From Octopus vulgaris (taxonomy: Eukaryota), in NCBI GenBank assembly GCA_951406725.2, contig OX597828.1:26660001-26724000 (forward strand): a DNA stretch of 64,000 nt. The letters are read 5' to 3'. How positions within the stretch are numbered: position 1 is the stretch's first letter; every line of letters begins with the position of its first letter. Of the stretch, positions 45,849-53,256 are shown one piece after another. A model generated the notes under the pieces. That model searched no databases and was not told the DNA's origin. It saw only the letters and a list, made by a program, of their open reading frames with translations. A program made the position numbers and the translations under genes.

Positions 45849-46453
45849 CCTTTTTGCATTCAGATTTTTCTGTCAAATGCTATGCTTATACATTCACAAA
45901 TCCAAATCCAAAATCGAAATCGATCAACATCAATGGAAATTGTAGCTGTGATACCAGTGCTGGTGGCACGTAAGAGAGCCATCCAAACGTGGCCGTTGCT
46001 AGCGCTGCCCCGACTGGCACGTAAAAAGCCCCATCCGATCGTGACCGTTGCCAGCCTCGCCTGGCCCTGGTGCTGGTGGTATGTAAAAAGCACCATCCGA
46101 TTGTGGCCATTGCCAGCCTCATGTGGCACGTAAAAAGCACCCACTACACTCATGGAGTGGTTGGCGTTAGGAAGGGCATCCAGCCGTAGAACCATTGCCA
46201 GATCAGACTGGGCCTGGTGCAGCCTTCTGGCTTCCCAGACCCCAGTTGAACCGTCCAACCCGTGCTAGCATGGAAAGCGGATGCTAAACAATTTTGATGA
46301 TGATGATGATGATTCACAATGTTTTGAATTAATCCTGTATTATCTCCTAGCTGTGAGATTTTAATATAATCTATAGATAGGTATGGAAATCTGTATCTGA
46401 GCAGTTTGAACATGAAACCTGCAGAATATTTTGGCCAGGTAAATGCTAAATGG
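45849..46453. mobile_element. piggyBac-like MITE (P1) interrupted by a family R retrocopy
   Basis: TTAA|CCTTTTTGCATT ... AATGCTAAATGG|TTAA termini around a 412-bp insertion. Confidence 0.7.
45900..46311 (+). mobile_element. RTE-tail repeat (family R) with internal tandem subrepeats and 8-bp TSD
   Basis: TSD ATTCACAA at 45892-45899 and 46312-46319; four ggcacgtaaaaagcacc-type units; (GAT)n tail. Confidence 0.88.
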
Positions 46454-47919
46454 TTAAAATTCTTATTGAATTGACTCTCCCATTCTTCCTAAATAATATT
46501 CAAATTGAATTTCTGTTGTGGCTACCGATTCCATTTCATAATAACGGTTACTAATAAAGGCACATGGCTGGCAAATTTTGATGGCAAGAAATTTGTAAAT
46601 GATATTAATCAACCCAAGTACTGGTGGAAGAGAAAGTTGGTTTTGGTAGGATTTGAACTCAGAGCATAAAGTGCCAGAACAAATAGTACGAAACATCTTA
46701 TCTAATGCTCTGACAATTAATAATTCTTTCCACTTTAGGCACAAAGCCTGAAATTTAGGTGGAGTGTCCTTTCATATCCTTTTGCCGTTAATGAAATAAG
46801 TACCTTTTGAGCACCAAGGTCATACCTGATCTTGATGCAATTTGAACTCAGAACATAAAACCAGAAATGCCACTGAGCATTTTGTCTGGCATAGTAATGA
46901 TTCTGTCATCTCACTGCCTTTCTAACAATAATAATGGTTTCCATGTCTTTAATAATAAACAAAGTTAAGATTAATCCTACACCATATTTGCAACTTAGAG
47001 CAAGCAATATACTCTCTGTACATAGCATCGGTTTACAGGTGGATGGGCTGAGCTGATAATCTCCCTTTTGCTGGATGGATACCTGTGTTTAAGCTAGCCA
47101 TCACCCTGCCATTATATTCAGAAAACAATAGAATCCCTTGAACTATAACTTGTTTTTATTTCCTAGAATCTATGGTTCTGGACCTAAAACCTTGGGCTTT
47201 GACAAACATCCTAACCACACTACCATGCTGTTGTCTATAATTCGCCTTAACTTTGGAAACTTGGAAGGAAACCAAATGAAATAATTAAAAGTAAAGAAAT
47301 GATCTTCATATTTAAACACAGGTTCGTGTTCATCATCATCGTTTAACATCAGTTTTCCATGCTAGCATGGGTTGGACAGTTCGACCGGGATCTGGGAAGC
47401 CAGAAGGCTGCACCAGGCTCCAGTCTGATCTGGCAGTGTTTCTACAGCTGGATGCCCTTCCTAACGCTGTTCTTAACAAGAATGATCATCATTGTCTTAA
47501 TGTCCTCTTTTCATGCTTGGGTCAGACGGAATTTGAGGCGAACTTTCTAAGGCTGGATGCCCTTCCTGTCACCAACTCTCGCTTGTTTCCAAATAAGTTT
47601 AATATTTCCCCATGGCCAGACATGATTTTTGCTGAATATCAAAGGAATGATGTTGTTTGGGAAGATAGTGATACTCATTTATGAATATCACAGGATGCCA
47701 AGATGCAGAGACACACATGCGTGCATGTGTAAATGCGTGCACACACACACAGGTTTCTTTCAATTTCTGTCTACCAAATTCACGCAACAACACTAGTTAG
47801 CTTGGAGTTTTTGTAAAAGGAACTTGCCTAAGGTGAAAGCATATGTTTGTGAAGCACACTTTTCAACAGTGTAACCCCATACCTGCACCCTGATACCAAC
47901 CAGGTTTTGCTTTCAAACA

Positions 47920-48019
47920 NNNNNNNNNNNNNNNNNNNNNNNNNNNNNNNNNNNNNNNNNNNNNNNNNNNNNNNNNNNNNNNNNNNNNNNNNNNNNNNNN
48001 NNNNNNNNNNNNNNNNNNN
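47920..48019. other. Assembly gap (100 N)
   Basis: Run of exactly 100 N, probably a gap of unknown size. Confidence 0.99.
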
Positions 48020-48329
48020 CACCTCCATATTTCTCCTATTTTGTCTGCTAATAATGGTCCATTTGATTCTGAAGACTTGGGGGGCTTTTGCATGAATTTC
48101 TCAAACAGCTCTTTTATAACTAAATGATGTCATTTCTTTATGCCCGTCTCTTAAAGAGTGAATGGGAGTAGTGTATAGGAGGGTGGTGCTAAAACATGGA
48201 ATGCTTCTGGCTGATAGGCACCAGATAACTTTTTGAGGACTCAGTCTGAGTCTGAATAGTTGAGTTAAATACTTATTCATAAGAATAAGTTGAAAGTAAA
48301 ATATGTAAAAACAATTCTATATTATTATT

Positions 48330-51387: not shown

Positions 51388-51420
<33 letters not shown>

Positions 51421-51421
<1 letters not shown>

Positions 51422-51775
51422 TCATTGGACACAGTGCGAGATGACTGGTGTTATCGCTAGGCCTAACTCATCGTTAAGTCAATACCACCATGACCGATAT
51501 CCAATCTACAGTGGAGAAGGCTAGCCACTGGATTTGGTTAAAAAGGGACGATGAGCGATGGCTAGAAGAATATTGAGCTTTATTTGATAACCAGCTGATC
51601 TAGCAAGCGGGGCCTCATATCAGTGAGGGGTGGGGTGCCGGTGCGCATTGATGCCGTCGAGAGGTAGGCCCCGAAACGGCATGCATTCTCTCCTGATGAC
51701 CCCATACACTTGCTGGCCTCCGGTATGCAGAGTTTTTGACTGGTAGCACTTGCTTGTGCAAGTTGTTTGCAAGAC
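51421..51775 (+). mobile_element. 5'-truncated HERO-like (RLE-type) non-LTR retrotransposon 3' end inserted in (ATT)n
   Basis: Frame 51421-51576 FIGHSAR*LVLSLGLTHR*VNTTMTDIQSTVEKASHWIWLKRDDERWLEEY* fits the HERO C-terminal F.G.S...L..LG...EKAS.W.W.KR...W pattern; (ATT)n on both flanks (51388-51419, 51776-51785); ~200-nt GC-rich 3' UTR. Confidence 0.75.
51609..51699 (+). ncRNA. Candidate rearranged hammerhead-like ribozyme, copy 1
   Basis: GGGGCCT(51609-15)/AGGCCCC(51666-72) next to GAAA(51673-76); ATGCCGT(51651-57)/ACGGCAT(51676-82); C51658 site; GAGAGG(51659-64)/TCTCTC(51687-92); CTGATGA(51693-99). Confidence 0.6.
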
Positions 51776-51789
51776 ATTATTATTAATAG

Positions 51790-52606
51790 TTTCAACTTTG
51801 GGTACAGGTCCAGCAATTTTAGGAGTTGGGTAAGTGAAGTACATCAGCCCCAGTACTCAACTGGTACTTGATCAGCTCCCAAAAGGATGAAAGGCAAAGT
51901 CAACATGAATGGCATTTAAATAATAATAATAATAATTTCAAATTTGAGCCACAAGAGCAGCTTGGGGTCAGTGGGAAGGAGCTGATTACATTGGACCCCC
52001 CCCACCAATGTTCAACTGGTACCTATTTTATCAATCCCAAAAGGATGAAAGGCAAAGTCAACCATGGCAGAATTTGAACTTGGGACCTACTGAATTTGAA
52101 TGAAACTGCTTAGCATTTTGTCCGACTCTATGGTGATTCTGTCGGCTTGTCATCTTTAATTGGTTCAAATTTCAGCAGAAGCTCTGCAATTTTCAAGGTA
52201 GGTGGAGGTTAGTTGATTACATCAACCCTAGCGTACAACTGGTTCACCTTTCCTCAACCCTGAAAGAATGAAGGACAAACTTGTTTCAGCGGGTTTTGAA
52301 CTCGGAACATAAAGATCTGGAAGTAAGCCTTGCTAAGCATTTTGTCCAACATTCCTACGAGTCTACCACCTTAATAATAATAATAATAATAATAATAATC
52401 CTTTCTACTGTCACACAAAGATTGAAATTTTGTGGAGAGGAGGTAAGTCAATTGCACCAAGCTCAGCACTCAACTGCTTGGTATTTCACTGACCTTAAAA
52501 GGATGAAAGGCAAAGTTGATCTTGGCAGAATTTCAATTCGGATGATAAAATTGGATGAAATGCCGCTGAGCATTTTGTACTCTATGCTAACAATTCTGCC
52601 AGCTTG
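51790..52606 (-). mobile_element. Head-to-tail array of about four decayed family C SINEs
   Basis: Core aaggatgaaaggcaaagtcaac recurs near 51883, 52041, 52265 and 52499, with (AAT)n spacers. Confidence 0.78.
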
Positions 52607-52805
52607 CCATCATCATCATCATCGTTTAGCATCCGCTTTCCATGCTGGCATGGGTTGGACAGTGCAACTGGGGTCTGGGAAGCCAGAAGGCTGCACCAGG
52701 CCCAGTCTGATCTGGCAATGTTTCTACGGCTGGATGCCCTTCCTAACGCCAACCACTCCATGAGTGTAGTGGGTGTTTTTTACGTGCCACCAGCACAGGT
52801 GCCAT
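52607..52805 (-). mobile_element. RTE-tail repeat (family R), young copy
   Basis: Nearly identical to 63660-63853 and 46120-46311 in reverse. Confidence 0.88.
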
Positions 52806-53256
52806 ACGATAAGAATAAGAATATGGGGTTTATACTGAAAGTAATGCAAAAGTACGCATAATTTATTCTCTATTAAATGTCATGGGTCTTCTGTATAGAT
52901 ATTTGTATGTGATAAGCAAAGAATAAAAGGTATGCACCTTCCCGCAATGCCATGCTGGGGGTAACCAAACACTAAACCATACCCATAACCTCATATCTTT
53001 CCTTGTCGGTTATTTTATGTTTTTTATTTTTTTTTAGAGGGAAATTGGCAGAGAAGCTAGAGTGTAGTTTATGAGAGGTATTTGCCAGATAATCATCATC
53101 ATCATCATCATGGAACTATGTTCCATGCTGACATGAGTTTGATGGTTCGTCTGAATCGGATGGCTCCAAGAACTGCATTGAGTTCTAGTTTATACTTTGC
53201 ATTGGTTTCTATGGCTGGATGCCTTTCCTAACACCAACCACTTAACATATAGTGAA

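Follow-up and report, generated by a model that had tools for sequence, protein, structure and literature searches.

The question raised by this locus is how a retrotransposon could be copied across the very site at which a ribozyme-like motif within it is predicted to cut. Within the window (the whole 64-kb stretch of Octopus vulgaris DNA analysed), the first-pass annotation had noted an RLE-type C-terminal peptide with (ATT)n on both sides and a hammerhead-like motif 33–123 nt after the stop codon, and had reasoned that cleavage must either be conditional or give way to a protein-binding role for the fold. The components of the copy and its junctions are as follows:

51388–51419, forward strand: (ATT)10.7 microsatellite in the host flank, at the 5′ junction of the window copy
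51421–51777, forward strand: 5′-truncated copy of a HERO RLE non-LTR retrotransposon, about 357 nt of a 3738-nt unit
51421–51576, forward strand: end of the ORF (last 51 codons, interrupted in this copy by two in-frame stops; stop codon at 51574–76)
51769–51777, forward strand: usual 3′ end of family insertions and presumed site of internal priming, from which long copies continue into the ORF start
51776–51787, forward strand: short run of about three ATT units at the 3′ junction, its AT shared with the element end

Family copies scored in the same genome (40 of 2686 first-look candidates) were 92–95% identical to the window copy, a second comparison with other copies giving 91–94%, and the longest open frame of the 3738-nt family unit, found at locus L061, encodes 1175 aa. 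The family is young, near-identical copies with an open ORF being present. The window copy itself is a dead, 5′-truncated product with a damaged stem II strand, and its reading frame contains two in-frame stops, that of copy L002 none.

Recovery of the full-length ORF bore out the reading of the peptide as HERO/RLE. Pfam assigned only RVT_1 to the 1175-aa protein of L061, leaving the nuclease without a profile match; a motif search located a CCHC knuckle at residue 954 and a PD..E signature at 1063. Protein relatives at 38–64% identity include those of fish and lancelet, and R2 proteins provide the nearest solved structures. Over one stretch of the RT domain, counted by eye against the rows available from the PMC7650587 supplement, 34 of 52 residues were identical to HERO-1_BF and about 18 of 52 to Utopia-1_LV, and signatures of the HERO rows (HERO-1_BF, HEROTn and HERO-1_SP) were present in the RT of the element. 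A single ORF comprising the RT, C-terminal CCHC and PD..E nuclease, with no APE, is likewise the architecture of HERO, a clade characterised in the available portion of PMC4640811 as RLE elements of mostly non-specific insertion with some families biased towards microsatellites. The element is filed here as HERO on the by-eye RT comparison, the quick RT tree holding no named HERO reference; in that tree the motif occurs in most branches and is absent from a few. A scan of viral contigs for relatives returned a single unrelated match at 24%.

The ATT repeats on either side of the copy, which had been taken as an (ATT)n target, are very unequal: the left-hand run is as described (10.7 units), while that on the right amounts to only some three units overlapping the last AT of the element. 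Examination of the 3′ flanks of 87 family copies did not uphold the proposed target, three or more ATT units being present in one and two or more in four (background in nearby DNA 0.1% and 0.6%, respectively), whilst (AT)n stood at the start of the flank in 17 of the 87 (background 5.5%). Target-site duplications were recorded for 7 of 58 copies, mostly within AT repeats, and no rule emerged. The family thus inserts with a mild, loose preference for AT-rich repeats and has no (ATT)n target, and its varied flanks agree with the mostly non-specific insertion by which HERO is defined. Dong/R4-like targeting, the (ATT)n-specific class used for comparison, was ruled out by the same family flanks (three or more ATT in 1/87).

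Two abundant families of short interspersed repeats have several copies beside the window copy (51778–52600 and 52620–52810, also 45860–46260 and 47316–47500), some of which adjoin (TAA)n or (CAT)n runs, and the ATT run on the right may be part of the target of a neighbouring short repeat. A run of N in the 47913–48035 region, approximately 3.4 kb upstream of the window copy, may be an assembly gap or a withheld stretch.

The hammerhead-like motif was found where it had been placed, with GUC at 51656–58, and the element continues past the predicted cut to 51777, that is for 119 nt as compared with the 115 or so estimated beforehand. Its parts in the window copy are these:

51609–51699, forward strand: whole motif, +33 to +123 nt after the stop codon
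51600–51612, forward strand: predicted 5′ strand of closing helix P0 (51609–12 pairs with 51700–03, 51600–07 with 51709–16)
51613–51628, forward strand: predicted hairpin P4, flanked by P0 and the stem II 5′ strand; a hairpin is found at the same place in most relatives
51629–51639, forward strand: stem II 5′ strand (G10.1 side) in its displaced position, here damaged because the G run is longer and includes two T
51642–51652, forward strand: distal stem III 5′ strand (51642–46) and 6-nt bulge (51647–52); a k-turn-like internal loop in many relatives
51653–51663, forward strand: block S, comprising a stem III strand, the GUC triplet and a stem I strand; predicted cut after C51658
51664–51666, forward strand: 3-nt linker from stem I to stem II, type-SGC-like
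51667–51685, forward strand: block G, comprising the stem II 3′ strand (51667–72), GAAA (51673–76), the stem III 3′ strand (51677–80) and distal stem III (51681–85)
51688–51699, forward strand: block C without its stem II strand, comprising the stem I 3′ strand (51688–92) and CUGAUGA (51693–99)
51700–51716, forward strand: 3′ strand of P0, directly after A9

The blocks follow one another in the order S-G-C, a non-circular permutation in which stems I, II and III cross, and the motif consequently falls outside hammerhead types I, II and III, which are circularly permuted forms of one nested three-way junction. Although the stem II strand is damaged, all three core blocks are intact in the window copy; among 30 aligned family copies the majority letter was the right one at every core position, though the three blocks were letter-perfect in only 7. 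Shuffling the 358-nt copy produced the motif in none of 5000 sequences, and a descriptor search over the 64-kb window gave one match on the forward strand (51658) and one other on the reverse strand. Rfam scans of the window copy returned no ribozyme and no hammerhead, and its nested minimum-energy fold was unremarkable (z 0.35); both methods miss the motif because its helices cross.

An initial reading in which stem II was formed with 51608–14 was replaced by the register that follows the hairpin, on the pattern of L077 and other relatives. The rejected register is a possible decoy in the host family alone, where this upstream 8-bp partner for stem II was calculated at −16.6 kcal/mol as against −11.4 kcal/mol for the conserved register. 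A related suggestion, that alternative pairings might act as a switch, held only in so far as the hairpin at 51613–28 and the words CCCCA and TGGGG are indeed present; the pairing between them is not conserved. TGGGG at 51631–35 is a copy-specific change of the G run, the conserved partner of CCCC being the upstream GGGG (13 bp in L077), and an alternative partner for stem II occurred in 8 of 26 families (null mean 5.9, p 0.21).

Relatives of the element were then drawn from metagenomes as 68 loci (the best 80 of 267 stretches), in 43 of which the C-terminus was reached. The descriptor specified NUH, GAAA and CUGANGA in S-G-C order together with 4 bp in stem I and 4 bp in stem III, its accepted core variants being set after they had been seen in the UTRs. 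It matched 31 of 45 UTRs, namely 29 of the 43 metagenome loci plus L061 and the window, as compared with 3 of 8400 shuffles, which supports a real motif present throughout the family. The 14 misses comprised four contigs that stop inside the motif, four in which the anchors are present with a mismatch, and six without the motif, those in which it was absent from a reasonable UTR among the 43 being L084, L087, L088, L109, L126 and L127.

Removal of five near-duplicates (L096, L124, L125, L130 and the window) left 26 rows. On their MAFFT alignment stems I and III were 96.9% paired, both sides changed in 9 of 10 pairs, and covariation amounted to 0.844 as compared with 0.228 after shuffling; when the partner strand was slid along the alignment, pairing fell to 37–50%. 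Since the rows had been selected by 4 + 4 bp of pairing in those same stems, this evidence is partly circular, and the weight accordingly lies on the fraction of UTRs matched and on the helices that played no part in selection. Of these, stem II paired at G10.1–C11.1 in 25 of 26 rows and formed five perfect base pairs in 22 (null mean 5.1, maximum 12 over 1000 null runs), its partner strand lying 18–26 nt upstream of the cut. The canonical SGC arrangement, with the stem II strand placed right after CUGAUGA, was ruled out: C11.1 is partnered by the base that follows A9 in one of the 26 rows, and positions 2–5 pair at chance level (11–13 of 26). Two extra helices fill the resultant gap between A9 and G10.1, P0 reaching at least 8 bp in 10 of the 26 families, as against a null mean of 1.0, and a P4-type hairpin usually being found between P0 and stem II. 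Compensatory pairs were found in all three stems.

The core was equally well retained. CUGANGA, GAAA and NUH were kept along with the stems in 26 non-redundant families, the cleavage triplet conforming to NUH in 26 of 26 and U3 variants occurring in three; stems of 5 bp were accompanied by a stem I-to-II linker of 3–7 nt. Core positions 3 and 8 were jointly changed to U and A in two of the 26 rows, and as the C3–G8 pair belongs to the active hammerhead fold, the joint change keeps the pairing. The catalytic letters and the NUH rule persist among elements whose proteins are 32–60% identical. A loose pattern for a k-turn-like loop in stem III was matched in 17 of 26 rows; such a loop or bulge could bend stem III back, letting 2–3 nt reach stem I. 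The hammerhead fold itself is judged very probable.

Some loci depart from this pattern. L084, L109, L126 and L127 have HERO-like ORFs followed by a 3′ UTR without the motif, and as L126 and L127 are sisters of the motif-bearing L117 and L122 in the quick tree, the motif has there been lost or has moved. L087 and L088, at about 30–60 nt after the stop, and L084 carry CUGAUG and GAAA close together and in the usual order; this may be a minimal hammerhead of conventional type belonging to a sister lineage.

A search using the first 306 nt of the unit as query gave 30 loci from 40 scored of 99 candidates, including six already known loci and two that share a flank. Base 1 of the unit was reached in 24 of the 30, and in all 24 it was preceded through one seamless junction by tail sequence of the element, the length of which ranged from 6 to more than 1494 nt. 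Of these upstream tails 18 continue past the predicted cut, and none ends within 4 nt of it. Conversely, 3′ ends that overshoot into the unit start by at least seven matched letters numbered 14 of 63 (1 expected). On the evidence of its genomic copies, then, the element has no fixed 5′ end. A run-through of stop, motif and ORF start was present in 7 of 43 distant contigs, with terminal overlaps in two more, and from this head-to-tail order it follows that the nominal 3′ UTR is also the leader of the next unit. In L061 (1436–4960) the open frame starts 15 nt downstream of the junction, with its first ATG at codon 61; the ORF stop and start would be about 210 nt apart on a circle, and the ribozyme-bearing spacer may serve for cap-independent initiation.

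Among 13 long loci, six consist of a 5′-truncated partial copy joined to a full copy via the same junction, and none contains two full units, the longest being 5712 nt. Letters private to a locus were common to its partial and full copies in three of the six (L062, L069 and L070; 1, 5 and 4 such letters) and in none of L061, L066 and L073; the two copies in L070 differ at nine places. Gene conversion is another way in which neighbouring copies could become alike, and two of the upstream partial copies share a G run shorter by one base, which is what descent from a tandem source would produce.

Other rearranged loci were also recorded. L065 (G000:C11:84626500-84636400) is inverted and rearranged, a 3.5-kb copy adjoining a 1.76-kb 3′ portion in opposite orientation and a further piece of 1.9 kb also being present, for which twin priming or strand switching is possible. 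L074 and L075 (G000:C17:79703000-79722900) are truncated copies that recur about every 7.3 kb and belong to a larger segmental tandem array, as distinct from a tandem of the element. Internally deleted units (L182, L186, L188, L196, L199, L202 and L203) mostly retain some 700–850 nt of the start and some 350–620 nt of the end, ribozyme included; their independent breakpoints suggest non-autonomous derivatives of 1.1–1.5 kb.

Traces of cutting in vivo were sought with a search pattern that barred intact upstream letters; it gave 30 matches, of which 15 were 5′ truncations and 15 continuing copies. Of the truncations, distributed between −11 and +6 of the cut, seven start exactly there and eight are spread over seven other positions (Bonferroni p 1.3e-4 for 18 positions); an eighth, L211, probably begins at the cut too. 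A T precedes six of the seven, and 4 of the 15 continuing copies show an indel or a jump between 0 and +2. The upstream control window yielded five truncations at four positions, and the downstream control, which was mis-set (the first 30 of 185 matches, from a pattern that also admitted CpG-decayed intact copies), five at five positions. Copies that span the cut number at least 657, and 99 of the 100 listed show no length change between the anchors. Taken together, seven starts at the cut and at least 657 copies across it indicate that the RNA sometimes ends there and that most templates were continuous across the site. The pile-up rests on seven copies and falls on the single predicted base; cutting in vivo at that base is considered very likely.

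None of the sequencing runs found to hold the element is recorded as RNA. A 1254-nt internally deleted unit (L062, 5918 to 4665) closes on itself across both cut and junction at a depth of 76–144 in contigs assembled from X1, X3 and X4, runs of a single study presumed to be RNA, a joint not listed for X14 or X16; the closure fits a circle and a tandem alike, and contigs cannot separate the two.

From features legible in the genome (the motif and its covariation, the head-to-tail junction, the lack of a fixed 5′ end, the pile-up at the cut, and the private letters shared by the partial and full copies of one locus) we infer a cycle of catalysis, ligation, internal priming and second-round strand displacement. 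A read-through RNA of a partial plus a full copy would be cleaved at both motifs to free a 3738-nt unit, which would be ligated to a circle by an RtcB-type activity, by analogy with animal retrozymes. The element protein would then prime inside the circle, approximately 119 nt past the join, and the RT would copy round it with the usual 5′ truncation and occasionally for more than one round, the second entailing strand displacement; monomers left unligated would give rise to 119-nt fragments. Over-unit insertions would rebuild the arrangement of two ribozymes, making the cycle self-sustaining. If the cut RNA is rejoined, copies that span the site would be explained without conditional cleavage, and the choice originally posed between conditional cleavage and a protein-binding fold would lapse, the nominal 3′ UTR being a spacer between one ORF stop and the next ORF start. 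That the RNA is cut after C51658, ligated to a circle, primed internally and reverse transcribed in rolling fashion is probable, the circle being the weakest step.

The nearest competing account accepts cleavage as predicted and dispenses with ligation: a linear template would be primed internally, 119 nt from its 5′-OH end, and after run-off the RT would jump exactly end to end onto the 3′ end of a unit RNA, whether the one just copied or a different one. Precise jumping would yield the same DNA as a circle, template jumping by R2 RT is established, the T before six of the seven copies that start at the cut is what non-templated run-off additions would give (seven of the 15 truncations lying there), and the four scars at 0 to +2 fit run-off followed by a jump. 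The difficulty is that an exact jump would be needed for nearly every insertion, given the 99 of 100 spanning copies of unchanged length and an estimated 15 or so copies stopping at the cut as against at least 657 passing it, whereas R2 jumps usually add letters. A linear template is for these reasons held to be unlikely.

Slow or conditional cutting, with most templates being uncut read-through of tandem loci and the over-unit copies inherited from a tandem master, would equally account for the preponderance of copies that span the site; it gains from the stronger decoy of the host family and from the G-run variant common to two partial copies. However, that decoy partner is not conserved across families, an uncut template predicts a pile-up at the upstream cut where 0 of 24 tails end, none of the 13 long loci holds the two full units of a master, and under such a reading each round could do no more than shorten the upstream part. 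The private letters common to partial and full copies and the recurrence of the head-to-tail order in distant lineages also tell against it, and it is regarded as improbable. As RLE elements bind structured 3′ UTR RNA and a split core may be inactive, it might instead be supposed that the fold does not cut at all, being a hammerhead-derived structure bound by the ORF protein for template choice and at which the RT pauses; retention of the catalytic letters and NUH rule at 32–60% protein identity, and a pile-up on the predicted base and not at a helix edge, make this very improbable. Cleavage with rejoining to a circle is therefore the reading retained in what follows.

Penelope-like elements combine a type I hammerhead and tandem copies with a GIY-YIG nuclease. 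HERO shares with them and with retrozymes a hammerhead in each tandem unit, and differs from both as a 3.7-kb coding RLE LINE with a permuted, split hammerhead; the short non-coding unit and type I hammerhead that define a retrozyme are not those of a 3738-nt coding unit. In the available text of PMC7229834 and bioRxiv 10.64898/2026.07.22.740005, retrozymes are 170–400 nt, non-coding and equipped with type I hammerheads, and the non-LTR retrozymes carry one hammerhead per tandem unit, double cleavage giving monomers and the genomic copies being in tandem; the former source also has RtcB circularising monomers of animal non-LTR retrozymes in vitro. The HERO element might work like a retrozyme.

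What HERO shares with R2, likewise an RLE retrotransposon, is a self-cleaving RNA (predicted in HERO) that lies ahead of the ORF start. In R2 the HDV fold occurs once, the 5′ end is fixed, and the template is linear and primed at its 3′ end, whereas HERO has no fixed 5′ end and its copies pass through the cut. The 5′ HDV-like ribozyme of R2 frees the element from its read-through transcript, as stated in the accessible part of PMC13580325.

The closest structural counterparts are the type-SGC hammerheads (HRIMA-1 and variants; Eckert et al. 2023), which cleave in vitro at 0.007–0.19 per min and which the available text of PMC10085705 describes as derived from metatranscriptomes and as present in no known organism's genome. 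The S-G-C order, crossing helices, short linker (3 nt in the window copy) and full catalytic core are common to both. They differ in that block C of type-SGC is unbroken, while that of HERO is split, with its stem II strand upstream and P0 and P4 in the gap, in that stem III of HERO has a bulge or k-turn-like loop, and in that the HERO motif sits in an autonomous animal LINE. Type-SGC ribozymes are further marked by an additional helix that connects stems I and II at their free sides; the additional helices of the HERO motif are P0, P4 and distal stem III. According to the same portion of PMC10085705, CUGAnGA and its stem II strand are assumed inseparable, with no insertion of more than 1–2 nt known there; core insertions elsewhere in hammerheads can slow cleavage (PMC3088659). 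The split A9/G10.1 backbone has no tested precedent. No description of a hammerhead, a split SGC wiring, a head-to-tail structure or a circular template in HERO was found in the literature searched, where an earlier mention is possible.

A non-circularly permuted hammerhead variant in a known LINE clade is accordingly new and real, and the replication route is likely to be unusual. On balance we lean towards the broader proposal that HERO LINEs, an autonomous RLE clade across animals, replicate via a coding circular RNA made by a seventh hammerhead wiring, of S-G-C order and with its core opened into a junction of several helices between A9 and G10.1, by rolling-circle TPRT primed within the circle and without true ends. 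If that is true, it could no longer be assumed that none of the three hammerhead blocks tolerates interruption, and this would be the first non-circular permutation in animal genomes, the accessible text of PMC10085705 reporting none in known organisms. HERO would moreover be a LINE whose template is a protein-coding circle primed from within, in contrast to the R2/L1 model, in which a linear RNA is primed at its 3′ end, and would connect the RLE LINEs to the lifestyle of retrozymes and Penelope elements. With near-identical, open-ORF copies of a young family to hand, both the wiring and the circular template would be directly testable, and reverse transcriptase priming inside a circular RNA would be of interest for R2-type gene insertion.
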